A stretch of DNA of 32,000 bases from Trichodesmium erythraeum IMS101 (GCF_000014265.1 NC_008312.1:2760001-2792000), one strand, 5' to 3'; positions 2,256 to 31,850 are shown, numbered from the stretch's first letter. The notes: generated by a model not told the origin, from the sequence alone. Translations and numbers: made by a program.

Positions 2256-2325
2256 TTTTTAGATTACTCTTGAAAAAAAAGCCCAAACTATTGCAGATTA
2301 GTAATTAGTTTTTAGTTTTAATTGT

Positions 2326-2353
2326 TTGATTAAACAAATATTTGTGATATAAA
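2326..2353 (+). promoter_or_regulatory. sigma70-like promoter inside repeat unit 1 (equivalents at 2589, 2852 and 3115)
   Basis: TTGATT (2326-2331), a 16-nt spacer, then TGaTATAAA as an extended -10 (TG 2345-2346, TATAAA 2348-2353). Units 2 and 4 carry TAGAAA instead of TATAAA. Sequence pattern only, no expression data. Confidence 0.35.
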
Positions 2354-2360
2354 GTAGGAA

Positions 2361-2408
2361 AAATTTCTCACATCCTAATTATCTTTGTGGGAAAATTTAG
2401 TTTTTTTT
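2361..2408 (+). terminator. hairpin plus T8 intrinsic-terminator-like element inside each repeat unit
   Basis: AAATTTCTCACA (2361-2372) pairs with TGTGGGAAAATTT (2386-2398). That gives 12 bp with one bulged A and one G-U pair, and a 13-nt loop. It is followed by ag plus TTTTTTTT (2401-2408). It starts about 8 nt after the predicted -10 box. The same element occurs in all four units. Confidence 0.4.
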
Positions 2409-3740
2409 CCTGATGCTGAATTTTTTTCAGGACTTGTCTAAAGCCCGAACAAAGTGAAACTTAACCCTAAGATTAAAAAAGAGTAAAAAAGAGTAAAAAT
2501 TAGCAAGCCATTGACAGTAAGAATTGAGAGTAAGACAGGAAAAATTTCAAGTATTGCAGATGAGTAATTGGTTTTTAGTTTTAATTGTTTGATTAAACAA
2601 ATATTTGTGATAGAAAGTAGGAAAAATTTCTCACATCCTAATTATCTTTGTGGGAAAATTTAGTTTTTTTTCCTGATGCTGAATTTTTTTCAGGACTTGT
2701 CTAAAGCCCGAACAAAGTGAAACTTAACCCTAAGATTAAAAAAGAGTAAAAAAGAGTAAAAATTAGCAAGCCATTGATAGTAAGAATTGAGAGTAAGACA
2801 GGAAAAATTTCAAGTATTGCAGATGAGTAATTGGTTTTTAGTTTTAATTGTTTGATTAAACAAATATTTGTGATATAAAGTAGGAAAAATTTCTCACATC
2901 CTAATTATCTTTGTGGGAAAATTTAGTTTTTTTTCCTGATGCTGAATTTTTTTCAGGACTTGTCTAAAGCCCGAACAAAGTGAAACTTAACCCTAAGATT
3001 AAAAAAGAGTAAAAAAGAGTAAAAATTAGCAAGCCATTGACAGTAAGAATTGAGAGTAAGACAGGAAAAATTTCAAGTATTGCAGATGAGTAATTGGTTT
3101 TTAGTTTTAATTGTTTGATTAAACAAATATTTGTGATAGAAAGTAGGAAAAATTTCTCACATCCTAATTATCTTTGTGGGAAAATTTAGTTTTTTTTCCT
3201 GATGCTGAATTTTTTTCAGGACTTGTCTAAAGCCCGAACAAAGTGAAACTTAACCCTAAGATTAAAAAAGAGTAAAAAAGAGTAAAAATTAGCAGGCCAT
3301 TGACAGTAAGAATTGAGAGTAAGACAGGAAAAATTTGTGGTCGCTGGGGATATCTAATGTCAATAGTACTAGGGTTATACGAAGTGGCGATCGCTTCAAC
3401 CGACTCAGTACTTGCTTTCAACGGCTCCAAGACATCAATGTGTTGTAAAGCCTTACTATTTCAGCTTCGTGGTATATATAATTATCATAGCTTTCCTTAA
3501 CAAAAATAGTTGGAGCACTTACCGAGTAGTCTTGTCTTTACGTTAATTACTTTTCTCATAAAATAGAGGTATCGGCTTTACGCTACTGTGAAAAATCAGA
3601 AGTTTATATGTATAATTAATCTGAAATATCAAATAAATATGATTAAAAATTTAGGTCAATAGCTTCTCCTTTTAAGGTTTGGGAAAAAAAATGTTCACCA
3701 TACCTATTCTAAGCCTTTGGCTTCAGTAGGAGATAATAAA

Positions 3741-3775: not shown

Positions 3776-4633
3776 ATGACACTTCCAGAGGACTTAAATA
3801 AGAATAGTTTAGCACCTACACCTACAGGTCTAAAAAATCCAGAAATTAGCTCTGATAAAGTGGAGGATATTACTTCCCCAGACTTAGAAGATCCCCGGAA
3901 TTCGGAAGCAGATGATAATCTTGACAAAGTTCCTGATGAAGTTGAAATGTCGATATTTGAGCATCTCGAAGAGTTACGAATGCGGATATTCTCTTCTTTA
4001 ATAGGAGCAATAGTAGGTATCTTATGTTGTTTCATTTTTGTTAAACCCATTGTCAAATTTCTAGAAGTTCCAGCTCAAGGAGTGAAATTTATCCAACTCG
4101 CTCCAGGAGAATACTTTTTTGTCACTATTAAAGTTGCTGCTTATGGGGGTCTTCTCTTAGCAAGTCCCTTTATACTTTATCAAATAATTAAATTTGTTCT
4201 CCCTGGTTTAACGACTAGAGAAAGAAGATTTCTCGGACCAATTTTCTTAGGTTCTACAGTCTTATTTGGACTGGGGTTAGTATTTGCTTATTTTGCAATT
4301 GTACCAGCAGCTTTAAAGTTTTTTATTGGTTATGGTTTAGAAGCGGTAGAGCAAGCATGGTCAATTGAAAAATACTTTGAATTTGTATTACTATTAATGT
4401 TTAGTACGGCATTAGCATTTCAAGTTCCAATTCTACAATTATTATTAGGTATTGTGGGAATAGTTAATTCTCAACAAATGTTATCCAGTTGGAAATATGT
4501 ATTGTTAGGATCTGTAGTTTTAGGAGCTGTTTTAACTCCTTCTACTGACCCTTTGACTCAAAGTCTATTAGGTGGAGCTGTAGTTGCTCTTTATCTTGCA
4601 GGTACTTTTGTTGTTAAGTTAATTGGCAAATAA
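3776..4633 (+). CDS. tatC: twin-arginine translocase subunit TatC
   Basis: 285 aa. TatC signature [23 protein letters not shown], followed by six predicted hydrophobic segments and [10 protein letters not shown] near the C-terminus. About 58 aa of acidic N-terminal extension precede it. The internal Met in [10 protein letters not shown] is an alternative start. Confidence 0.92.
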
Positions 4634-5563: not shown

Positions 5564-6694
5564 TCAGCCCTTGAGGTTATTAAGTTCTTCTTTTATCCAA
5601 TCTTGATTAAATATCCTTTTATAGATCTTATTAAATACTTCTAAGCGCCCATCTTTTTTCACAACTAATCCTGACAATGTCAATTTTTGGTAAACATAAT
5701 CATCTTTTGACTCAATACTGCCTTCATTTAATATCCTTTCATATAAATTTAATAAAAGGTGTACTTGCTGTTCTTCTCTCAGACGGTTTCTAATAGTTCT
5801 TAAATGTTCAGGATCGTCTTTTTCTTCACTTAATCCATTTTCAATTATTTTTTCTTGTACTAAATTATCAAGTTTTATTTTTTCTCTTTTTTCTAGAGAA
5901 AAATTCAAACCAGATTTTGCCACTAACTCACATACTTTTTGTGTTAAAAAAGGCTGTCCACTAGTCCAATCAAGAATCCATTGTATAACTAACTCTGGTT
6001 CAAAAGCAACATTTTTTAATCCTGCTGCTAAATTAGAACATTCATGACTTTTAAAACCTTCTAATTTAATAGTTTTACACTGAATACTAAAAAGACTATT
6101 ACCATAATTTTTAATTAAATCAGATGGTGTAGCAACTCCTAATAAACAAAAAGTAAGCCTTCTGTCTTCTTGTCTATTAGAATAAATTTTGTATTCAGAA
6201 TAGCCTCGAATTAAGTCAAAAAAGTTATCTCTCCAAGTGAACTTAAACAACTCATCAATTTCATCAACAAAAATTATAATTTTTATTCTTTTATTAGATG
6301 ACAAAACTTTTTTGAAAAATTCTGTTAAATCATTACATCCAATTTCTCTGTTTTGAGCAATAGCTATATAATTTCTAATATCAAGAGTTTTGTCTATGTT
6401 AGTCTCTAAACATTTATGACCTATCTTTCTCATAAGAGCTTTATAAAAATTTGATTCATCTTTAGGTTGCTCTTGAAGACTATAGTCAATACATAAAATA
6501 TCTTTGTTTTCTTTCAATTTTTCTTTAATATTAACTATTAGAGAACTTTTTCCCATTTGTCTAGAGTTAAATACATAAGAAAATCGACCATTTTTTAATG
6601 ATTTTAGTAAATCTTCATCAGCTTTTCTAGATATATAAACCTCTCGCTTGTTAAAAGGAATAGTTCCACCAATGTGATAGAAATTTTCTGTCAT
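5564..6694 (-). CDS. AAA-like domain ATPase (Pfam AAA_35-type, STAND-like), stand-alone
   Basis: 376 aa. The family-typical N-terminus is YHIGGTIPFNKREVYISRKADEDLLKSLKNGRFSYVFNSRQMGKSSL (Walker A GKS). Walker B is IIIFVDEIDEL. Other blocks are LLGVATPSDL and SGQPFLTQK, and the C-terminal block is LTLSGLVVKKDGRLEVFNKIYKRIFNQDWI. Confidence 0.8.
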   Translation of the reverse strand: MTENFYHIGGTIPFNKREVYISRKADEDLLKSLKNGRFSYVFNSRQMGKSSLIVNIKEKLKENKDILCIDYSLQEQPKDESNFYKALMRKIGHKCLETNIDKTLDIRNYIAIAQNREIGCNDLTEFFKKVLSSNKRIKIIIFVDEIDELFKFTWRDNFFDLIRGYSEYKIYSNRQEDRRLTFCLLGVATPSDLIKNYGNSLFSIQCKTIKLEGFKSHECSNLAAGLKNVAFEPELVIQWILDWTSGQPFLTQKVCELVAKSGLNFSLEKREKIKLDNLVQEKIIENGLSEEKDDPEHLRTIRNRLREEQQVHLLLNLYERILNEGSIESKDDYVYQKLTLSGLVVKKDGRLEVFNKIYKRIFNQDWIKEELNNLKG

Positions 6695-7704: not shown

Positions 7705-9240
7705 CTATTGCAAAATACTAACAAAATAATCACGATATAAACGACAACGAGGTTTAACCTTGTTATTATTCTGAATAATTAAACCTGCATTCTGTAAATG
7801 AAAATTTGACATTGGCGAATCTAACTTAACATAATCTTGACTATTAACTATTTTTCTTAAGTCATCTGTTAATTTAGCATCATTAACAATGTTGTAAAGT
7901 TGCATCAAATAATCTTTATAAATGCTCTCATTTGTAGTTGCTTTTGCTAAGATATTATCTAAAGATTTTCCTTCAATTGCGACATGATACAAAGTTAGTC
8001 TTACTAAATATGGATGTCCTCCGATAAAAGACATTAACTTTTCAAGTTGTTTAACTCCCCAGTCTAATTGATGCTTATCTGATAATTCCTTAATTTCTTG
8101 ATAACTAAAATCACCTAAATTCCAACCTTCTCCTAAATTAAATAAAGGAGAGCTATTAATATTTGACTTGGGATAATTAGATGTTGAATAAATTAAAATT
8201 AATACCAAATTTATCCACTTATGATCATTTTTGGCTTTGTTATCATGCCAACATCGTAACATGCTCGCAAATTCATTAAAATTGGAATATTCAAATATTT
8301 TATGGAAATTATCAAAGCTCAAAAAAATAGGCTGATTAATCTCAGACAATATGTGTTTTTCAACAAAGAACGTACAATCATAAACACTTTCTATGGCTTT
8401 TCCCCATTCTTTAAGTATCTCTTCTGCATTCAAACCTAACTGTTGACAAAGTTCACGACAAAACCAATCATAAGTTTCAAATTTTTCTTTTTGGAAAGAA
8501 CTAAAATGTTCTGCTAAATCAATATCAACTACTTTAGCCTTATTATTTGTAACTAATTTATTATTTAATAGCCTATTCTTGAAAGATGTTTTACCCCTCA
8601 AATGAGGACCTTTAATCCGAATTAATATAGCTTCCTTTCCTGCATTTTCAATCTTACTCAAACATTGATTTTCTAAATAACAATTTTGGTTATAATATCG
8701 ATATTGATAGTAGGGAGAATAAGTTGGAATAGAACCTCCTGGGTAGGGAATACGCCCTAATAATTCAAACCTGGCTCTAGCTGCAGAAGAAATCCTATAT
8801 TGCTTATATTCAACGAAATATTTCATGACAATGAATAAATCTTCTTCTATATTTCTTGTGCTTTTAACCCTAAATTTATCACATATAGCTCGTAAATGCT
8901 TACTAAGTAAAGCTTTGCTTTTACCAGATGAAGATTTTCGGAAATAATATAAATCTTCCACCTCTAATTTGAGTTTTTTGAGCTTTTTAATTTGATTATC
9001 ATTTTTGTCTTTTTGAGCTTTTATTTTATCAATTTTTATATTGATCTGTTCGACTATATCTTTAGGGTTATTATACTTATATACATTGAGATATTCATAT
9101 ACATTTAAATTGAACCAAACTGTTTCATCTGTTCTGATCTCCTCATTTGTTTTACCATCTAATATTCTATTTAAAATTCTTTTGAGAATAGGAGTTAACT
9201 CTTCCTGTTCAATGCGTTCAAACTGGTCCCTGCTTAACAT
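7705..9240 (-). CDS. AAA-like domain ATPase (AAA_35-type) with about 170-aa N-terminal extension, possibly HTH
   Basis: 511 aa. The core is RIPYPGGSIPTYSPYYQYR...IRIKGPHLRGKTSF, which gives Walker A GxxxxGKT. The Walker-B-like block is IFLSFDNF. Other blocks are GGHPYLVRLTLYH and the C-terminal LQNAGLIIQNNNKVKPRCRLYRDYF. It is a paralogue of 5564..6694. The N-terminal pieces LTPILKRILNRILDGKTNEEI and KALLSKHLRAICDKFRV resemble the two halves of a LuxR-type HTH, separated by a Lys-rich coiled-coil-like insert. Confidence 0.7.
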   Translation of the reverse strand: MLSRDQFERIEQEELTPILKRILNRILDGKTNEEIRTDETVWFNLNVYEYLNVYKYNNPKDIVEQINIKIDKIKAQKDKNDNQIKKLKKLKLEVEDLYYFRKSSSGKSKALLSKHLRAICDKFRVKSTRNIEEDLFIVMKYFVEYKQYRISSAARARFELLGRIPYPGGSIPTYSPYYQYRYYNQNCYLENQCLSKIENAGKEAILIRIKGPHLRGKTSFKNRLLNNKLVTNNKAKVVDIDLAEHFSSFQKEKFETYDWFCRELCQQLGLNAEEILKEWGKAIESVYDCTFFVEKHILSEINQPIFLSFDNFHKIFEYSNFNEFASMLRCWHDNKAKNDHKWINLVLILIYSTSNYPKSNINSSPLFNLGEGWNLGDFSYQEIKELSDKHQLDWGVKQLEKLMSFIGGHPYLVRLTLYHVAIEGKSLDNILAKATTNESIYKDYLMQLYNIVNDAKLTDDLRKIVNSQDYVKLDSPMSNFHLQNAGLIIQNNNKVKPRCRLYRDYFVSILQ

Positions 9241-16834: not shown

Positions 16835-17406
16835 TGGAGAAGGTTGGCTCCTGTATAACCAGTAGTTAACCAAAGAATTCCTCTAATTCCATCTCGAATT
16901 GCTTTTTTTATGGGCTCGGGGGATCGCCCGGAGGGAACTGGTAGGGGCTTAAAAGCAATACCCCTACTACTCAAAACAATTTTGCCGATAACTATAGCGC
17001 GACGCATATGGTCATCGGAGGTAACTAAATAAACACTTGTAATACCTTGAGATTTTAGTTTATCTACTGTTGTTGTGAAATTAGTGACGGTATCTACGGC
17101 GTCATAGTCTAAATGTAAACGGGTTTGTGATATGCCAGCTTGGGAAAATAACCACTCTGCGTATTCTGGGTTACTGCCAGAAGATACCCAAATATCTAAG
17201 TTAGGATGTTGGCGGGCAAATTCGGCGGCAAATGCTTCTCTTTCTATGGCTCCACCAAGTACTAATAATGCTTGAGGAGGTTTAATGGTACCACTAATTT
17301 GTTGGTAACTAATCCAAAGAGTAGCTAAAAGTCCTAATAAAAACCACGAAATTAGAGAAATTTTTAATCTATGTAATTTCGTATTGGAAGTTACCCTCAA
17401 AACCAT
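16831..17406 (-). CDS. DUF218 / YdcF-family protein
   Basis: 191 aa. One N-terminal TM segment, then ALLVLGGAIEREAFAAEF...IWVSSGSNPEY...DAVDTVTNF...VYLVTSDDHMRRA, typical of the DUF218 (ElyC/YdcF/SanA) fold. Confidence 0.8.
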   Translation of the reverse strand: MVLRVTSNTKLHRLKISLISWFLLGLLATLWISYQQISGTIKPPQALLVLGGAIEREAFAAEFARQHPNLDIWVSSGSNPEYAEWLFSQAGISQTRLHLDYDAVDTVTNFTTTVDKLKSQGITSVYLVTSDDHMRRAIVIGKIVLSSRGIAFKPLPVPSGRSPEPIKKAIRDGIRGILWLTTGYTGANLLH

Positions 17407-17982
17407 ATGTTTTCAAATCAAAAACCACCTGTAGTTTTACAGATGGAAATAGCTTCAATATCAATATTCAAAAAGTACTATCTACCATCCGGAGTTAGAA
17501 GTGGGGAAGTAGGGAAATAGTGAGCAACATTCTATCAAAATCCCTACAGATGGAGACTTTCCATGGAACTGTCTGAGGTTGGAAGTGAGAATTATAGAGA
17601 GGGTAGTCGAATATATTTCTGCCTTGATTTTTTTGCATATTTATAGGTATAAAAAAACGACTTGAGTCAATATCAACTTATTTTTTGAGGTTTATTCAGT
17701 CAGCCTCTGATTTTTGGAGGAAAACTATGTTTTATAAATATCTTTCTTCAGATAAGACTTGACAAAAAATATAAATTGTGCATTTGGTGTTATATTAATT
17801 ATATGATTGTTTTTCTACAGTAAATTTATTTCAAAATTGGTTTTTTTCTGCCAGGCCTAATTCTTTGCTCATTCTCTGTCCCTCCCGCCCGTTTCCAGAT
17901 CCCTCTATTCAGAACAAGCCTTTAGGAGTCCCAGGGATAGGAAGATAGGGAGGTTGAGTTTTGACTTTTGAATTTTGATTTA

Positions 17983-18301
17983 CGGGACTGGCGCGATTCG
18001 AACGCGCGACCTAGCGCTTCAGATTTGTGTGAGTTTCCCCACTCTCTGGACTATCCCTTCACCATAGCTTTTATAGCTTTAGGTGGTGGCCTAACGCTTC
18101 AGGAGAATTATCATTACTCCTTACAACTCTAGTCTCTGCACCTTCTTTACCTCATTAGGGGTAAAGCTTGGCTCAAGATTACCTTATCTTTGTAAATGAC
18201 TTAGGCTTCCTTGAGTTTGACCACATTCACTCATGGAGTTTCCTCACATGGTGCCCGATACTTCAGGAGGCGCTTGCTCTATCCATCTGAGCCACAGCCC
18301 C
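17983..18301 (-). tRNA. tRNA-Arg(CCU) interrupted by a group I intron (exons 18301..18265 and 18019..17983)
   Basis: Joined exons give a perfect 74-nt cloverleaf:
- acceptor stem GGGGCTG/CAGTCCC with one G-T pair
- D arm GCTC-AGATGGATA-GAGC
- anticodon stem AGCGC/GCGCT with loop CT-CCT-AA
- variable loop AGGTC
- T arm GCGCG-TTCGAAT-CGCGC
- discriminator G, no encoded CCA
Exon 1 ends in U36 and the intervening sequence ends in G, as group I splicing requires. Confidence 0.88.
18020..18264 (-). ncRNA. group I intron (tRNA-type, IC3-like), 245 nt
   Basis: In RNA sense the intron reads GAAGTATCGGGCACCATGTGAGGAAACTCCATG..., with these elements:
- P2 hairpin with a GAAA loop
- P4 pairing CTCAAG/CTTGAG (the P and Q elements)
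- R element GCAGAGACTAGA and S element AAGGGATAGTCC, forming P7 (GACTA/TAGTC)
- P3 pairing GTGGTC/GGCCAC
- P9 hairpin GAGT-GGGGAA-ACTC
- terminal G
Length and motif order match bacterial pre-tRNA introns as I remember them. Confidence 0.85.
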
Positions 18302-18789
18302 ATTGTAAAGCTATAGAAATCTATTAACTTTCAATATACAAAATAAAGATTAGCAGTTAAAATTGCTTTCTTATTTATTTATAATAAAATCTAGTTATAA
18401 AATTTGTTGTAATTTTAACATTAACTTAATTAACTACTTATATATCTGTATTTGCCTTTCAATAACTAACTATTGGACTGGGCTTCAGTTAACTTCTGAT
18501 GTCTTAAATTAACAACTAATTTTATTTGTGCGTAATATCACTTAAAAAATAAAACGCTTGATAACTATAGCATGAATTTTGTGGGTTTGTCTATTATTAT
18601 TAAAGTTTTTTTTCCCAAAAATGATTATTCTTTGATTCAGTCAATATTCTAGACTGGTTTCTGAATGACTAATTAATAATTTTTGGCCTGCTTGACTAAA
18701 AAATAAGGTCTCAAAATTGCTCTTTCAAAGTTCGGGGGAAAAAAATAAATTTCAGTATTTGGCTGCAGACTTCAGCTAGAGGTACTTAC

Positions 18790-18810
18790 TAACTGTTAAC
18801 TGATACTAAA
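18790..18810 (+). repeat. heptamer tract in the leader of the STAND gene
   Basis: TAACTGT TAACTGA TACTAAA, ending 15 nt before the ATG at 18826. Confidence 0.7.
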
Positions 18811-18825
18811 ATAACAAAACATTAT

Positions 18826-21759
18826 ATGCTCGGTTTCTTTTTGGTATTTGACTGCAAAAATTATCCTCCTCAAGGGGATGTTGTTTTTGTTCATGGTTTG
18901 GCTGGTCATCCTTGGGGTACATGGCATCCTCAAAATAAAAAGGATAAAGAAGATGTTGACTTTTTGCTGTGTTGGTTGGGTGAAGAACTACAAGCACATG
19001 GAATAGATGTTAATGTCTGGAGTTTTGGATATGATGCTCCTGGTTTTCAATATTTTGGTCAGGGAATGCCGCGTTTTGATCTGGCTAGTAATTTACTGGA
19101 GTATCTTCAGGTTTATGATATTGGCAAGACATCCACTAGTTTCCCCAAACGCCCATTGATATTTGTAACTCACAGTTTGGGTGGTTTGGTGGTGAAGGAG
19201 GTAATTCGTACAGCTCAAAGTTTTCCTGAGTATCTAGCTATTGTTAAACAGGTTAAAGGAATTGTATTTTTGTCTACTCCACACACGGGAACTCATTTGG
19301 CTAATTTAATTGATCACGTCGGTTTTTTGACTAGACCTACAGTGAATGTTGAAGAGTTAAAAGAACATTCCCCTCAACTGCGAGATCTTAATGAATGGTA
19401 TCGACAAAATGTTGGCAAGTTGGAAATTAAAACTAAGGTTTTTTATGAAACAAAGTCTCTGAATGGGGTTTTGGTTGTGAATGAGGATAGCGCTAACCCT
19501 GGTATTCACGATGTTAAACCTATTGCTGTTTCAGCAGAAGACCACAACTCTATTGCTAAACCTGGAAAAAATGATTTGGTTTATCTTTCGGTGAGAAAGT
19601 TTTGTCAAGATATTTTTGCTTTAGAGGAAAGCACTTCTTCTCAATATCTTCACCAAAAATACTATATTCCTGGGGAGGCTAGCTTAGAGAATAAAGTTTT
19701 TGTAGGTAGGGAAAAAGAATTAGCTGATGTCGACAAGTTACTCAAAAATTATCAGCGGGTTTCTATTGTTTCTGTTTCTGGAATGGGTGGTGTTGGTAAA
19801 ACAGAACTTTGCCGCCGATATGCTTATGCTCATAAGTCTGCTTACCCTGGAGGTATTTGTTGGTTGGAAGCGCCGACAGAAAATGCAGGTATTCAGATAC
19901 TTAGGTTTGCTCAGAATAATTTCCAGCTTGTTTTCTCTTCAGATCAAGATTTACCGGAAAGGTTGCGCTACTGTTGGCAAAAGTGGTCTGAGGGGAATAC
20001 TTTGCTGATCTATAATGATGTAACTGACTACAATACTCAGGCCAAGCCTTTTTTACCTCCGGACTTGTCTCGGTTTCGGGTGTTGCTGACCACTCGTAAA
20101 AGTTTTGGCTCGGCATTTCCGGAGTTGCGTCTCGATGTGTTAAAGCCTTTGGCGGGGATGAAGTTGTTAAGGTCTATTTTGGGTAGAAAGAGACTTTTGC
20201 TAGAACCTAGGAAGGCTAGAGAACTGCTGATTTTTTTGGGTTATTTACCTTTGGGAATTGAATTGGTGGGGCGATATTTGGATGAGTATTGGCAGAGTTT
20301 GAATAGGGATGGTTTGGCTTTGACAAAAATGCTTAAGCGTTTAGAAAGAAAGAGTCTGGAACATCAGGCTATGTCATCTAATGAGTTAATTAATTATCCT
20401 TATGGTGTGGCGGAGGCGATCGCTTTGAGTTGGGAGATGTTGGATGAAAATACTCAGGAAATTGGGTTGAAGTTAGGTTTATATGCTTTGGCACCTATTC
20501 GTTTGTGGTGGGATGGGATAGAAGATGATGAAGAGTTGGAAGGTTGGGAAATTGCTCTTGGGAATTTGGAAAATCTGCATTTACTGAAGAGTGTTGAGCC
20601 TGGTGTTTATATTTTGCATTCTCTAGTGCGAGAGTTTTTGCAGATGAAGTTGAAAGAATATCCAAGGGCAGATGAGTTAAAGCGGGGTATTTGTCAGGTA
20701 GTGGCAGAGGCGGCTAGGAATATTCCTGATAACATTACAGTGGAGCAAGTTAAGGAAGTTGAGGTTGATATTCCTCATATTACGGAAGTGGCGGCAGTTT
20801 TGACTGAGTATTTGAGTGATGATGATTTGATTTCTCCTTTTAATGGACTAGGTCGGTTCTATCTAGGTCAAGCATTGTACTCACAGGCACAACTTTGGTT
20901 AGAGACAGGTAAAGAAATAGCAGAAAAACGGCTAGACAAAGATAATGCTGACATTGGGAATATCTACAACAGTCTGGCTTTATTATATAAGTCTCAAGGA
21001 AAATACGAAGCTGCAGAACCTTTGTACCTACAAGCTATTGAAACCGCAAAAATAGCCCTCCCTGAAAATCATCCATCTATTGCCACAGGCCTCAACAACC
21101 TGGCAAATTTATATTATTCTCAAGGAAAATACGAAGCAGCAGAACCATTGTACCTACAAGCTCTTGAAATCAAAAAAATAGCCCTCCCTGAAAATCATCC
21201 ACAACGTGCCAGCGGCCTCAACAACCTGGCAGGTTTATATTATTCTCAAGGAAAATACGAAGCAGCAGAACCATTGTACCTACAAGCTCTTGAAATCGAC
21301 AAAATAGCCCTCCCTGAAAATCATCCACAGTTTGCCACTCACCTCAACAACCTGGCAAAATTATATAGATCTCAAGGAAAATACGAAGCTGCAGAACCAT
21401 TGTACCTACAAGCTCTTGAAATCGACAAAATAGCCCTCCCTGAAAATCATCCACAGTTTGCCACTCACCTCAACAACCTGGCAAAATTATATAGATCTCA
21501 AGGAAAATACGAAGCTGCAGAACCATTGTACCTACAAGCTCTTGAAATCAACAAAATAGCCCTCCCTGAAAATCATCCAGATATTGCCACTGACCTCAAC
21601 AACCTGGCTTTATTATATGAGTCTCAGGGAAAATACGAAGCTGCAGAACCTTTGTACCTACAAGCACTGAAGATATTAAAACAATCATTAGGAGAAGAAC
21701 ATCCTAATACTCAAACAGTTCAGAAAAACTATCAAAATTTCTTAAATGAGAAAAAATGA
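18826..21759 (+). CDS. NLR-architecture STAND protein: N-terminal lipase-like alpha/beta-hydrolase, NB-ARC ATPase, C-terminal TPR array
   Basis: 977 aa, in three parts:
- Hydrolase: VVFVHGLAGHPWGTW, nucleophile elbow FVTHSLGGLVVKE (GxSxG-type), and candidate Asp/His in VVNEDSA and AEDHNSIAKP.
- NB-ARC: P-loop GMGGVGKTEL (nt 19781-19810), kinase-2 LLIYNDV, RVLLTTR, and GLPL-like GYLPLGIELVG.
- TPR: six 42-aa TPR_10/12-type units of the form LNNLAxLYxSQGKYEAAEPLYLQALEI. Confidence 0.9.
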   Translation: MLGFFLVFDCKNYPPQGDVVFVHGLAGHPWGTWHPQNKKDKEDVDFLLCWLGEELQAHGIDVNVWSFGYDAPGFQYFGQGMPRFDLASNLLEYLQVYDIGKTSTSFPKRPLIFVTHSLGGLVVKEVIRTAQSFPEYLAIVKQVKGIVFLSTPHTGTHLANLIDHVGFLTRPTVNVEELKEHSPQLRDLNEWYRQNVGKLEIKTKVFYETKSLNGVLVVNEDSANPGIHDVKPIAVSAEDHNSIAKPGKNDLVYLSVRKFCQDIFALEESTSSQYLHQKYYIPGEASLENKVFVGREKELADVDKLLKNYQRVSIVSVSGMGGVGKTELCRRYAYAHKSAYPGGICWLEAPTENAGIQILRFAQNNFQLVFSSDQDLPERLRYCWQKWSEGNTLLIYNDVTDYNTQAKPFLPPDLSRFRVLLTTRKSFGSAFPELRLDVLKPLAGMKLLRSILGRKRLLLEPRKARELLIFLGYLPLGIELVGRYLDEYWQSLNRDGLALTKMLKRLERKSLEHQAMSSNELINYPYGVAEAIALSWEMLDENTQEIGLKLGLYALAPIRLWWDGIEDDEELEGWEIALGNLENLHLLKSVEPGVYILHSLVREFLQMKLKEYPRADELKRGICQVVAEAARNIPDNITVEQVKEVEVDIPHITEVAAVLTEYLSDDDLISPFNGLGRFYLGQALYSQAQLWLETGKEIAEKRLDKDNADIGNIYNSLALLYKSQGKYEAAEPLYLQAIETAKIALPENHPSIATGLNNLANLYYSQGKYEAAEPLYLQALEIKKIALPENHPQRASGLNNLAGLYYSQGKYEAAEPLYLQALEIDKIALPENHPQFATHLNNLAKLYRSQGKYEAAEPLYLQALEIDKIALPENHPQFATHLNNLAKLYRSQGKYEAAEPLYLQALEINKIALPENHPDIATDLNNLALLYESQGKYEAAEPLYLQALKILKQSLGEEHPNTQTVQKNYQNFLNEKK
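20950..21705 (+). repeat. six in-frame 126-bp tandem units encoding the TPR array, including a perfect 2 x 126-bp duplication at 21271..21522
   Basis: The landmark tctcaagga recurs at 20992, 21118, 21244, 21370, 21496 and 21622, a period of 126. Segments 21271-21396 and 21397-21522 are identical base for base. Confidence 0.93.
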
Positions 21760-22523
21760 ATCAAAACTCCTTCAAATATTGAACTTGCCAAATAATTTGA
21801 TGACCCGCCTTACCTCCAGCAATAAAATTCTACCCACCCATTAAAAAGTAACCTTCACCTTAAACTTACCTAGGTTTTCTACCTACTATTTATTCAATTT
21901 CCTTAGTAGTCAAAATCAAACCTTTTTCACAACAGACAGTCAGAAAAATCTCAGGATATTAGTTGATATATCCCTGAAATTATCATCAAGTAGACGAGAA
22001 AAATGATTGCTTGTTTACAACCACCCCAAACATTTGTTTAATCATCTATATTTTTCTCACAGACACTCAAAATATTCGGGATGCAATGATCACAAACCCC
22101 ACAATTTTCAGGTATATTTGCGATCTTCCTAAATATCCCTAACAGCGCTTTTAAAATTCATGAACTACATCCCCATAACTAAAACCTCGTAAGAACTTAG
22201 GAACTTTGGATGTAGAGACGCATCAGGTCGTCCCCACCGTCCTCTACCGATATTAAAACTGCAGCAAAAAGCCAGACTTGAAAAACCCCCCCACTTTTTC
22301 AGAGAAGAAGAGCTAAAACAGTAACCCATAGATTAAATAACTGCCAGATATCACCAAATATCGGTTAAACCTTCAAAAATTAATCATGATAAAATGCTGC
22401 AAAACTCAGGAAAACTTATAGAAATTTCTGACAGAAACACTCAATATTTTCCCAAAAATAAACAATATATTTCAGCTAAATTGAGCAAAAGTCATTATTG
22501 ACTGCCAACTTGTAAACATTCAA

Positions 22524-22544
22524 CCATCAGCCATCAGCCATCAA
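22524..22544 (+). repeat. heptamer microsatellite (CCATCAG)x3
   Basis: CCATCAG CCATCAG CCATCAA read directly from the sequence. Confidence 0.85.
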
Positions 22545-22574
22545 CTAGAACAAGAAATTAGCCTCCCAGAAAAA

Positions 22575-23117
22575 TTAAAACTCCCACAGCAAAAAAATTA
22601 AATACTGACTGCAAACTTCACCCCAGTCAGGAAGATAGACACCATCAACATTAAGCACTTGTTCAATATTTTGTAGCAAACTTCCTAACCCTAGATATTT
22701 TTGCCCTCTAGGTAACATGTCTATACTTAACTTACTTACCTCTTCCTTAGCCGCCAACCTTGCAAAAAAATTAAACAAAAAAATTAAACATAAGATAAAT
22801 AGCAATATCTGCCGCGAACTTATCCCCTGGCAACCAACTTTTATCCTCTAAAACATGATCATTGAGTACAGTAAAACCTGCTTTTAACCTTAGGAAAACC
22901 TCAATAACTTCCCTTTCTTTCCCTGCCAAACCCCCAAAGCAAATTGGAGACATAAGTTCCCATCAACAGAAAGTAACCATATTTTTAACTTCAGATACCT
23001 CTTGGCAAACTATAGCTTTTTTAACTAGTCTTACCAAAAATTCCCACTCAGGAAAAAGAGAATCTAAATATGGTAAAATAGCCATAGATATCACGTACCC
23101 AAAAACCTCCATGTTTT
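22575..23117 (-). pseudogene. possible decayed gene of unknown family
   Basis: Three consecutive minus-strand open pieces. The first is MEVFGYVISMAILPYLDSLFPEWEFLVRLVKKAIVCQEVSEVKNMVTFC, which ends at an in-frame TGA. The second is the 22771..22953 ORF. The third is the 22575..22805 ORF, in a shifted frame and overlapping by 35 nt. No family recognised. Confidence 0.3.
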
Positions 23118-23582
23118 AGTAAAAGCGCTCTACCACAATAGCTTCAAGCTAAATAATTAAGTTGCTTATATTCCGCAGTAAATGGAGCTAAATTATGAGT
23201 AGTATAATAATATTATGAATTACTAAAGCGAGGAGTACTCCCCAAGCAAAAAAACCACCTTAAAAGCTAAAAAATTCTATTATTAGACATCTTTTATTGA
23301 ATATTATTCCTAATAAAATCATAAGAGCTTAGTCTTTTCATCCTATTTTTTCTCCTAGGCTTGGATACTAAAGCTCCTAGTATCAAATATTCCAACATAT
23401 TTTGGTAAAAGATTTGACTTTTTTTAAATTTTTAAGTATAGTATTACTTATGGCTATCAAATAAAAAAAGCTTAGGAAAATGGAATAAACAATTTCCGAC
23501 TTCTGCAGAATCCGAAATTTATTTCTAATCCTATGCTTTGATTTCTAGATAAGATTATTACATAATATGTGTAACAAAGTTA

Positions 23583-25310: not shown

Positions 25311-25364
25311 AAAAGTTAAAAGTAGTTACAAGTAGTTAAAAGTAGTTAAAAGTAGTTAAAAGTT
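25311..25364 (+). repeat. decamer tandem repeat (AGTAGTTAAA), about 5 copies
   Basis: aaaagttaaa agtagttaca agtagttaaa agtagttaaa agtagttaaa agtt, starting 3 nt after the HIP1 site at 25301-25308. Confidence 0.9.
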
Positions 25365-27807: not shown

Positions 27808-27843
27808 AAAAACTAAAACTAAAACTAAAACTAAAACTAAAAC
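27808..27843 (+). repeat. hexamer microsatellite (AAAACT)x6
   Basis: Read directly from the sequence. It lies about 220 nt beyond the stop of the deacetylase gene. Confidence 0.9.
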
Positions 27844-28061
27844 TAATAAGGATATAAAGAGGGAATTTAATATCTTTTTATAAGCTGTTTTAATAGCTAA
27901 ATTTAAAATAGCTAAATTAAAGGGATATTACCTTGATTATTTTGAATATCAATTTCAATTTATAAATCTCTCACCCGAAAATTTTAGGGTGGAGAATGAA
28001 AACTTCCTAGTTCTGACTTCGCGGCTTCTGACTTCTGAGTTGCCCGTAGCCCTATAACTTC

Positions 28062-28983: not shown

Positions 28984-29050
28984 AAAAAATTAAAACTAAA
29001 AAATTAAAACTAAAAAATTAAAACTAAAAAATTAAAACTAAAAAATTAAA
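28984..29050 (+). repeat. 14-bp tandem repeat (AAAAAATTAAAACT), about 4.8 copies
   Basis: Units at 28984, 28998, 29012 and 29026, plus a partial unit at 29040. The array begins 11 nt upstream of the deacetylase start codon at 28973 on the minus strand. Confidence 0.9.
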
Positions 29051-31659: not shown

Positions 31660-31850
31660 ATAAGTATTTTGTTAATCATTATTTTTCTGATGAAGTTAAA
31701 TCAATTTTTATAACTCAGGAGCCATAAAATTAAGTTACAGTAGTTTAATGTTTTTATAAGTATTTTGTTAATTATTGTTTTTCTGGTGAAGTTAAATCAA
31801 TTTTTATAACTCAGGAGTCATAAAATTAAGTTATAGTAGTTTAATATTTT
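31660..31850 (+). repeat. 96-bp tandem duplication, two copies
   Basis: ataagtattttgttaat begins at 31660 and again at 31756. I count about 6 differences between the copies. Confidence 0.88.

Follow-up and report, generated by a model that had tools for sequence, protein, structure and literature searches.

We analysed a 32-kb stretch of the Trichodesmium erythraeum IMS101 chromosome (hereafter the window, with coordinates counted from its start) that carries the gene Tery_1822. The open reading frame (ORF) under study encodes 977 amino acids (aa) and is 100% identical to Tery_1822 (ABG51079.1 / WP_011611454.1 / Q114J5), a protein annotated in databases as ‘NB-ARC’, carried on a 7.75-Mb contig and not mentioned in the literature that we searched. 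It ends in an array of near-identical 42-aa TPR units that differ mainly at seven codons. We consider it probable that an NLR-like STAND protein recognises its ligand through this array, and that the array evolves by concerted evolution combined with diversifying selection on the codons of its groove. The original prediction, made from the DNA sequence, was that of a rapidly evolving recognition surface, and our analysis supports it: the non-synonymous divergence (dN) of the seven codons lies far above the synonymous rate of the scaffold around them, and none of the observations named beforehand as speaking against such a surface (variable positions in the helix-packing core, orthologues identical in repeat number and sequence, near-identity produced by assembly) was made.

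Seven variable codons in a homogenised repeat array

The array comprises six in-register units of exactly 126 bp (R1 to R6) at 20950–21705, the 3′ end of the ORF, in agreement with the six 42-aa units first described. Tandem Repeats Finder detected a period of 126 with 5.4 copies and 91% matches over 20982–21665. Within R2–R5, pairwise identity is 86–98% in amino acids and 88–99% in nucleotides, whereas R1 and R6 are more divergent caps (67–76% aa identity). A seventh, degenerate TPR-like helix pair stands ahead of R1 (aa 667–708) and a capping helix follows R6. The 168 aa of R2–R5, with their 86–98% identity, surpass the threshold of >85% identity over at least 100 aa by which Dyrka et al. 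(2014) recognise repeats of high internal conservation (HIC). R4 and R5 differ by a single nucleotide; the 126-bp duplication reported for this region (21271–21396 = 21397–21522) is indeed exact and lies within a longer maximal repeat of 159 nt. The core SQGKYEAAEPLYLQA..KIALPENHP is, as had been noticed, unchanged at the protein level across R1–R5.

The differences between the units are strongly clustered. Of 18 variable nucleotide columns in R2–R5, 17 fall inside the 21 nt of codons 1, 2, 4, 5, 11, 14 and 33 (hypergeometric P = 2e-16), and the sole column outside them is a silent change in codon 21 (GCA/GCT). Silent changes also occur inside two of the hypervariable codons, codon 1 (CAA/CAG) and codon 4 (ACA/ACT). 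The claim that variation is restricted to these seven positions thus holds for R2–R5 but not for R6, to which it had been extended: this unit also varies at positions 31, 35, 36, 38 and 40, because it is the C-terminal cap. R1 shows additional differences at positions 3, 6, 8, 30 and 32.

Nei–Gojobori estimates on 25 unique unit sequences gave a dN of 0.67 and a synonymous divergence (dS) of 0.39 for the seven codons, against 0.025 and 0.12 for the other 35 (dN/dS ~0.2), which are clearly under purifying selection. A minimum of 29 non-synonymous events was observed at the seven codons where 9 would be expected at the scaffold synonymous rate (Poisson P = 1e-7), so that the array displays the few hypervariable positions with non-synonymous excess that are typical of HIC repeats. 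At silent sites of the scaffold, the units of one array differ little: dS is 0.028 in IMS101 and 0.10 in an Okeania homologue that shares the protein scaffold, as compared with 0.51 between the two arrays (dN 0.04). Silent sites are therefore homogenised within arrays while the protein scaffold is conserved between genes, which indicates concerted evolution or repeated recent amplification; the contrast between 0.028 and 0.51 corresponds to the silent-site homogenisation that is a further mark of HIC repeats.

The rest of the gene also evolves rapidly. Its non-repeat part (18826–20949) exhibited dN/dS values of 0.95–1.3 between IMS101 and four other lineages, as against 0–0.25 for six flanking genes in the same genome pair. 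Pooled ratios of non-synonymous to synonymous polymorphism (pN/pS) were 2.6 for the hydrolase domain and 1.6 for aa 641–708, both from small counts in lineages that are not independent. The highest non-synonymous divergence between lineages was located in the helices just ahead of the array (20698–20949). All orthologue ORFs are open and their motifs intact.

Domain layout and the place of the variable residues

Tery_1822 has the three-part layout of NLRs, with an N-terminal effector-type domain (alpha/beta-hydrolase, aa 17–265), an NTPase (NB-ARC, aa 292–606) and C-terminal superstructure-forming repeats (TPR, aa 667–977). The NB-ARC domain scored 36.4 bits in Pfam (cut-off 23.5) and possesses all the Walker A, Walker B, TTR/sensor-1 and GxP motifs that characterise the STAND/NB-ARC clade; the closest solved NB-ARC by sequence is that of AfsR (E = 4.7e-10). 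The repeats matched Pfam TPR_12 (E = 1.8e-85) and TPR_10 (E = 8.8e-68). By its NLR-like architecture, the TPR region would be the sensor of the protein.

Several observations bear on the N-terminal domain. In Pfam, Abhydrolase_6 and DUF676 exceeded their cut-offs (DUF676 with 22.5 bits vs 20.3), and PGAP1, with 21.3 bits, remained just under its cut-off of 24.3. The domain was modelled by AlphaFold2 with a predicted local distance difference test (pLDDT) score of 82.8, and Foldseek matched this model to serine hydrolases, lipases and thioesterases. A nucleophile elbow containing S117 comes right after strand 111–116, and across 46 homologues H116 is invariant and S117 and H240 nearly so. An alpha/beta-hydrolase fold with a serine nucleophile elbow, belonging to the DUF676/PGAP1 group, is what defines sesB-like/SERAC1-type domains; the N-terminal domain has these features, and by analogy a lipase or esterase activity leading to cell death can be predicted. 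The same domain is widespread in filamentous cyanobacteria, either standalone or fused to NB-ARC, TIR or AAA_35 modules, and its homologues carry source labels such as esterase/lipase, DUF676 or SERAC1. Its presence in these three fusion contexts suggests that it has been shuffled in the manner of conflict-system effectors. A protein scan of genome contigs with the non-repeat part of Tery_1822 retrieved 55 loci, most of which had only the hydrolase domain in common with it (aa 1–261/331), and no orthologue among these contigs was closer than those known from the cluster members described below.

The TPR region was modelled with high confidence (AlphaFold, pLDDT 91.4), each unit consisting of helix A (1–15), a turn (16–18), helix B (19–36) and a loop (37–41). 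Its best fold matches were the TPR domains of kinesin light chain 1 (KLC1) in complex with JIP1 and TorsinA peptides (6fuz and 6fv0; TM 0.78, 41% identity), and the sequence match to KLC1 had an E value of 5e-50; unit length, helix-turn-helix structure, family match and fold all agree with TPRs of the kinesin light chain type. We projected the list of KLC1 contacts (PMC6214655) onto the units by strict 42-residue register, with residue identities checking out in 15/15 cases. The cargo contacts project to unit positions 4, 7, 8, 11, 12, 14, 15, 19 and 33, so that hypervariable positions 4, 11, 14 and 33, four of the seven, fall on contacts of the concave groove (P = 0.028). The invariant Asn7/Asn8 correspond to the KLC1 Asn ladder, pairs of asparagines that hydrogen-bond the peptide backbone.

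Positions 1, 2, 4, 5, 11 and 14 are found in helix A and point away from its invariant hydrophobic face (A3/L6/L9/A10/Y13). Helix A lines the inside of the TPR superhelix. On a helical wheel, the hypervariable positions of this helix have a mean direction of 70 degrees; the contact face, at 37 degrees, is close to it, and the hydrophobic face, at 245 degrees, lies opposite. All seven positions avoid the packing core, as a recognition surface would require. Homology supports their placement on the concave face, the match with the KLC1 groove applying to positions 4, 11, 14 and 33; positions 2 and 5 are ambiguous in this respect.

Orthologous arrays and competing explanations

Two clusters at 90% identity around Tery_1822 contain 24 sequences from Trichodesmium cultures, metagenome-assembled genomes (MAGs) and ocean metagenomes. 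Their non-repeat 708 residues are 95.5–100% identical to IMS101, and the number of units in their arrays is 1, 3, 4, 5, 6, 10 or 11, with every array length a multiple of 42 aa; all arrays other than the reference come from short-read assemblies, so that these counts are confounded. Entropy among 31 unique internal units of the Trichodesmium orthologues exceeded 1 bit at positions 1, 2, 4, 5, 11, 14 and 33 only. No internal unit was common to any two of five Trichodesmium lineages, the non-repeat parts of which are 95.5–96.6% identical in protein and differ by ~1.5–2% in nucleotides. The most credible of the non-reference arrays are those of the k127/k141 contigs, one with 10 units, all distinct (L001), and another with 5 (L003). 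An 11-unit array in Trichodesmium sp. MAG_R01 (L002) occurs in a locus syntenic with the window on both sides. The expectation that orthologues differ in their units was thus borne out; the accompanying idea of a repeat number changed by unequal recombination is not proven, the counts being drawn from short-read assemblies.

Three other contigs (L005, L006 and L007) match the window at 100% identity in their flanks (3.6 kb upstream, 1.6 kb downstream), intergenic DNA included (window 17326–23259 compared), yet their arrays have 5, 4 and 6 units, respectively. All their differences from the window lie within 21298–21516. QFATH units are absent from them, the two of the reference having been replaced or lost, and in L005 hypervariable codon 11 is GAT (Asp), which does not occur in the reference array. 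Either mis-assembly or very fast change of the array may explain these differences, and we set the three contigs aside as evidence for repeat-number polymorphism, as they may be re-assemblies of the same strain. More generally, the short arrays resemble in-register fusions of units of the longer ones, a pattern expected both from unequal crossing-over and from graph collapse through the invariant core. Repeat-number polymorphism is likely but not proven. Exact-DNA scans for the invariant cassette core had no match in genome or metagenome contigs, from which the source genome is apparently absent.

A comparison with 112 cyanobacterial NB-ARC-TPR homologues, several of them encoded on complete chromosomes, showed that the median of the mean between-unit identity is 0.74 and that 19% of these proteins reach 0.80. 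In 67 of these proteins, variability within arrays peaks at positions 11, 14, 33, 4 and 1. The Trichodesmium array is therefore nothing unusual but typical of a large family.

These observations can be combined into a model in which an alpha/beta-hydrolase effector, an NB-ARC switch and a TPR sensor act together. The units would stack into a superhelix whose inner groove presents the Asn7/Asn8 ladder and the variable side chains 4, 11, 14 and 33, with positions 1, 2 and 5 at the groove entrance. Concerted evolution would keep the 35 scaffold codons near-identical within the array, silent sites included, probably because the units undergo in-register unequal crossing-over and gene conversion, processes that would also alter their number and order. 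Diversifying selection would retain and renew the differences at the seven groove codons, with the consequence that the set of units would differ from lineage to lineage. Fungal NLRs and bacterial Avs proteins suggest, by analogy, that the binding of a foreign or altered protein or peptide in the groove might relieve autoinhibition; the NB-ARC module might then oligomerise, and the clustered N-terminal lipase/esterase domains damage membrane lipids, killing or arresting an infected or incompatible cell of the filament. Ligand binding, oligomerisation and an immune or non-self role are accordingly put forward as putative properties of Tery_1822.

Several points weigh against this interpretation. 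We found no match to Avs (Avs1–5) or bNACHT in PADLOC 2.0, a model set that does not include Avs7–21; its matches were all weak (DUF626_VIII to the N-terminal domain, E = 1.8e-15; a generic TPR model; mad8). The gene is located among housekeeping genes (plsX, fabH, chlP) and not in a defence island, and defence, ligand binding and lipase activity are attributed to it by analogy. Repeat counts derive from short-read assemblies. With four of seven positions, the overlap with the KLC contacts is modest, the helical-wheel test taken alone is not significant (P = 0.19), and positions 2 and 5 sit at the edges without clearly facing the groove. Nei–Gojobori estimates at seven saturated codons are noisy, since the sites are few and the unit comparisons not independent, and recombination between units is at odds with what a simple dN/dS assumes. 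Finally, the dN/dS near 1 of the non-repeat part could reflect relaxed constraint instead of adaptive change.

This last value would also suit a neutral history, in which one unit was recently duplicated in tandem and seven unconstrained surface residues drifted without any diversifying selection. Exposed helix positions in TPRs tolerate substitution, a ratio near 1 fits a generally weak constraint, and the 1-nt difference between R4 and R5 implies that at least one duplication is very recent. Under such a history, however, dN at the seven codons should be similar to the scaffold dS (0.03–0.12), whereas we found 0.4–0.95, with many codons differing at two or three bases; the scaffold itself is clearly constrained, and the same positions vary in 67 other proteins and coincide with KLC1 ligand contacts. 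Because the seven positions have diverged 5- to 30-fold beyond the neighbouring silent sites, neutral duplication followed by drift is unlikely. We assign a comparably low probability to Tery_1822 being a STAND regulator or scaffold without an immune role, a signalling switch like AfsR or MalT, with a TPR domain that binds an endogenous partner and units kept near-identical as a stable consensus TPR. AfsR does provide the closest solved NB-ARC, PADLOC gave no known defence family, and the gene, itself with a lipase-like domain, lies amid lipid-metabolism genes (plsX, fabH and an acyltransferase gene). Nevertheless, an endogenous partner would favour a conserved binding surface, and here the surface is the fastest-evolving part, with no unit common to close lineages. 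Selection for protein stability leaves the homogenisation of silent sites unexplained, the N-terminal domain, like conflict-system effectors, turns up in shuffled contexts (NB-ARC, TIR and AAA_35), and the AfsR model matched with 59 bits against a cut-off of 1430.

That the near-identical units, the R4/R5 duplication or the differences in unit number result from repeat collapse or expansion during assembly appears very improbable. Such an artefact would explain why three contigs with window-identical flanks hold arrays of 4, 5 and 6 units, and graph collapse through the invariant core generates the same in-register fusions that are seen in short arrays. It cannot produce a codon-specific pattern, though, and both the design and the seven positions recur in independent assemblies, including the k127/k141 contigs with every unit distinct, as well as in many homologues from finished genomes with complete chromosomes. 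Moreover, the exact duplicated stretch spans 285 bp and would fit within one Sanger read, given that the IMS101 reference is, as we assume, a finished Sanger-era genome. Hardly credible, lastly, is the targeted rewriting of the seven codons by a directed mutator such as a diversity-generating retroelement (DGR). Multicellular bacteria do possess NLR-like sensors diversified by DGRs, and in Trichodesmium populations the alleles of DGR targets vary (PMC10907252; PMC7517822); the GAT codon at position 11 in a contig otherwise identical to the reference could be seen in the same light. However, known DGR targets are C-type-lectin folds and not TPR arrays, all three codon positions vary, with any base replacing any other and not adenine specifically, no reverse-transcriptase domain was found in the Pfam-scanned ORFs of the window or in the genes called at the MAG_R01 locus, and no template repeat was seen within the 32-kb window. 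We rejected the array as a DGR target on the lack of reverse transcriptase in these two places and on the absence of adenine specificity.

Known systems, genomic surroundings and significance

Among the closest counterparts of Tery_1822 are fungal NLRs. Their highly conserved TPR, ANK and WD repeats exhibit repeat-number polymorphism, and in a sesB-like/NB-ARC/TPR gene modelled on KLC2 the positively selected sites map to the concave TPR face (Dyrka et al. 2014, PMC4986451). Fungal HIC NLRs such as Podospora anserina Pa_2_10340 (sesB-like lipase/NB-ARC/TPR) or HET-Z/PaPnt1 (patatin/NB-ARC/TPR) share with Tery_1822 a lipase-type effector, an NB-ARC domain and 42-residue TPR_10/12 units that are >85% identical and have few hypervariable positions. 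As the sesB-like effector is described as a lipase domain of the human SERAC1 type (PMC4986451), the layout of Tery_1822 matches the fungal sesB-like/NB-ARC/TPR class, with the kinship between the hydrolase domains resting on shared family labels (DUF676/PGAP1/SERAC1-like). In the fungal proteins, variable sites on the concave face, repeat-number polymorphism and concerted evolution are documented (PMC4986451; PMC13449251), and PCR or long reads confirmed the repeat counts, whereas those of the Trichodesmium orthologues come from short reads. Tery_1822, by contrast, comes from a filamentous marine cyanobacterium and is not known to have a genetic link to allorecognition or cell death. According to a 2020 survey, WD and TPR repeats with 80–90% internal identity occur in bacterial NLRs too (bioRxiv 10.1101/2020.01.06.895854), a 2026 study tied such repeats to NLR-like architectures in all domains of life (PMC13449251), and the HIC evolutionary regime has been proposed for bacterial NLRs in both. 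The ‘42PR’ repeats of a P. anserina NLR (PDB 4y6c, 4y6w) belong to the same repeat class (sequence match E ~1e-16) and have been cited as a structural example of the highly conserved TPRs in fungal and bacterial NLRs (bioRxiv 10.1101/2020.01.06.895854); unlike Tery_1822, they are a fungal fragment studied for folding, with no population data attached.

Other systems are similar in part. The Avs families and bNACHT proteins also combine an N-terminal effector, a STAND NTPase and a C-terminal TPR-like sensor, and binding of a phage protein by the Avs sensor leads to oligomerisation and cell death (PMC13581612; bioRxiv 10.1101/2022.07.19.500537). Avs sensors are, however, irregular TPR-like solenoids that envelop conserved phage folds instead of near-identical cassette arrays, and the NTPase of Tery_1822 is of the NB-ARC type; we rejected membership in these families on PADLOC family scores. 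Kinesin light chain TPRs (PDB 6fuz, 6fv0, 3zfw, 7ai4) also have 42-residue units (41–45% identity, TM-score up to 0.78), and in their concave groove extended peptides are bound by an Asn ladder together with variable residues of helix A. The relation is structural and not functional, as the kinesin light chain is a eukaryotic motor adaptor with six non-identical repeats and without NTPase or effector. DGR-diversified NLR-like sensors of multicellular bacteria, including Trichodesmium, likewise carry a hypervariable C-terminal sensor on a STAND protein, with the same proposed arms-race or kin-recognition logic (PMC10907252), but they diversify a C-type-lectin domain by error-prone reverse transcription whereas the diversity of Tery_1822 sits in a TPR cassette array. 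AfsR (SARP/NB-ARC/TPR; PDB 8k60) and FxsT (NF040586) share the NB-ARC and TPR domains and differ in the N-terminal domain, and no FxSxx-COOH system genes are present nearby. The best NCBIfam match, FxSxx_TPR, covered the TPR part only, and membership in the FxsT and AfsR families was rejected (182.1 vs 300 and 59 vs 1430 bits).

Table 1 Features of Tery_1822 and of its surroundings in the window.
Feature	Position	Strand	Remarks
Tery_1822 ORF, three-part STAND/NLR-like protein	18826–21759	+	Pfam and sequence identity
Alpha/beta-hydrolase domain (DUF676 / PGAP1 / ‘esterase-lipase’ type), putative effector	18874–19620	+	Pfam, AlphaFold2, Foldseek
Nucleophile elbow T-H-S117-L-G-G	19168–19185	+	Motif in hydrolase domain
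Conserved D/H candidates of hydrolase domain	19480–19503, 19537–19563	+	
NB-ARC (STAND) NTPase module	19699–20643	+	Pfam NB-ARC and motifs
Walker A GMGGVGKT	19780–19809	+	NB-ARC motif
Walker B LLIYNDV	20002–20028	+	NB-ARC motif
TTR motif (LLTTRK)	20083–20100	+	NB-ARC motif
GxPL motif (GYLPLG)	20239–20271	+	NB-ARC motif
Pre-TPR helices and one degenerate TPR-like helix pair (aa 625–708)	20698–20949	+	Model
Unit R1, N-terminal cap	20950–21075	+	71–74% aa identity to R2–R5
Units R2–R5, core	21076–21579	+	Starts 21076, 21202, 21328, 21454; 126 bp each
Hypervariable codons 1, 2, 4, 5, 11, 14, 33			Offsets +0, +3, +9, +12, +30, +39, +96 from unit start
Unit R6, C-terminal cap	21580–21705	+	Extra substitutions (positions in the text)
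C-terminal capping helix NTQTVQKNYQNFLNEKK	21706–21756	+	After R6; model
Longest exact internal duplication	21265–21549	+	21265–21423 = 21391–21549; 159 nt, offset 126
tRNA-Arg(CCU) gene split by 245-nt group I intron	17983–18301	-	Intron 18020–18264
Four tandem 263-bp units	2286–3374		Between gpsA (1257–2255) and tatC (3776–4633)
ORF with AAA_35 (PF14516) ATPase domain	5564–6694	-	
ORF with AAA_35 (PF14516) ATPase domain	7705–9240	-	~180 N-terminal residues without assigned domain
Upstream flank without ORFs of at least 120 aa	17407–18825		1.4 kb; holds the split tRNA gene
Downstream flank without ORFs of at least 120 aa	21760–23782		2.0 kb; short ORFs only
Short AT-rich tandem repeats	25314–25363, 27809–27846, 28984–29050, 31660–31850		Units AGTTAAAAGT x5, AAAACT x6, AAAAAATTAAAACT x4.8, 96-bp unit x2

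The coordinates of all features are compiled in Table 1. Tery_1822 lies between a DUF218 gene and chlP, near plsX, fabH and an acyltransferase gene, and is flanked on both sides by stretches devoid of longer ORFs; according to a published transcriptome study, only ~60% of this genome is protein-coding (PMC4143802). About 520 bp upstream, on the opposite strand, we observed a tRNA-Arg gene interrupted by a group I intron, which matched the Rfam family Intron_gpI with 68.7 bits (E = 1.3e-15). ARAGORN found no tRNA in the raw window and called tRNA-Arg(cct) once the intron had been manually spliced out (5′ exon end ...CUCCU, intron end G; 76 bases called, including two added flank bases). Elsewhere in the window, the copies of a tandem 263-bp repeat are 98–99% identical except the last one (89%), and each contains the micro-repeat AAGAGTAAAA three times; neither a listed ORF of at least 120 aa across this array nor an Rfam family at the gathering threshold was detected. 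The two ORFs with AAA_35 domains may be further conflict-system genes, because hydrolases of the Tery_1822 type are fused to AAA_35 or TIR in other cyanobacteria.

The seven-position repeat pattern of Tery_1822 is not new in kind: fungal NLRs are documented to have it, and it has been reported for NLR-like proteins of bacteria, cyanobacteria among them. Our evidence at the level of lineages somewhat exceeds that of the bacterial surveys, which reported such repeats and merely proposed the same evolutionary regime: this locus is a concrete bacterial case, with seven hypervariable codons, homogenised silent sites within the array, full turnover of units between near-identical oceanic lineages and a groove map that can be tested. 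It contributes one more example and a test system but introduces no new principle. Much more speculative, and quite doubtful in our opinion, is the remodelling of the array over times as short as those of laboratory culture, or within a single clone, an idea based on the three contigs that have >5 kb of reference-identical flanks and yet carry 4, 5 and 6 units and a new Asp codon. Trichodesmium cells are highly polyploid; if such remodelling were true, variation could arise among the chromosome copies of a single filament, and Tery_1822 would be an NLR-like receptor that varies its recognition surface somatically through intragenic gene conversion, a repertoire generator comparable to a contingency locus in a bacterial innate-immune sensor.

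Among innate receptors that diversify by the shuffling of repeat cassettes, fungal NLRs with near-identical repeats are the classic example. Nitrogen fixation by Trichodesmium is of global importance, and its blooms end through cell death and viral lysis; for this reason, a fast-diversifying receptor of the death-domain type would be a reasonable candidate to underlie strain-level differences in phage resistance or kin recognition.

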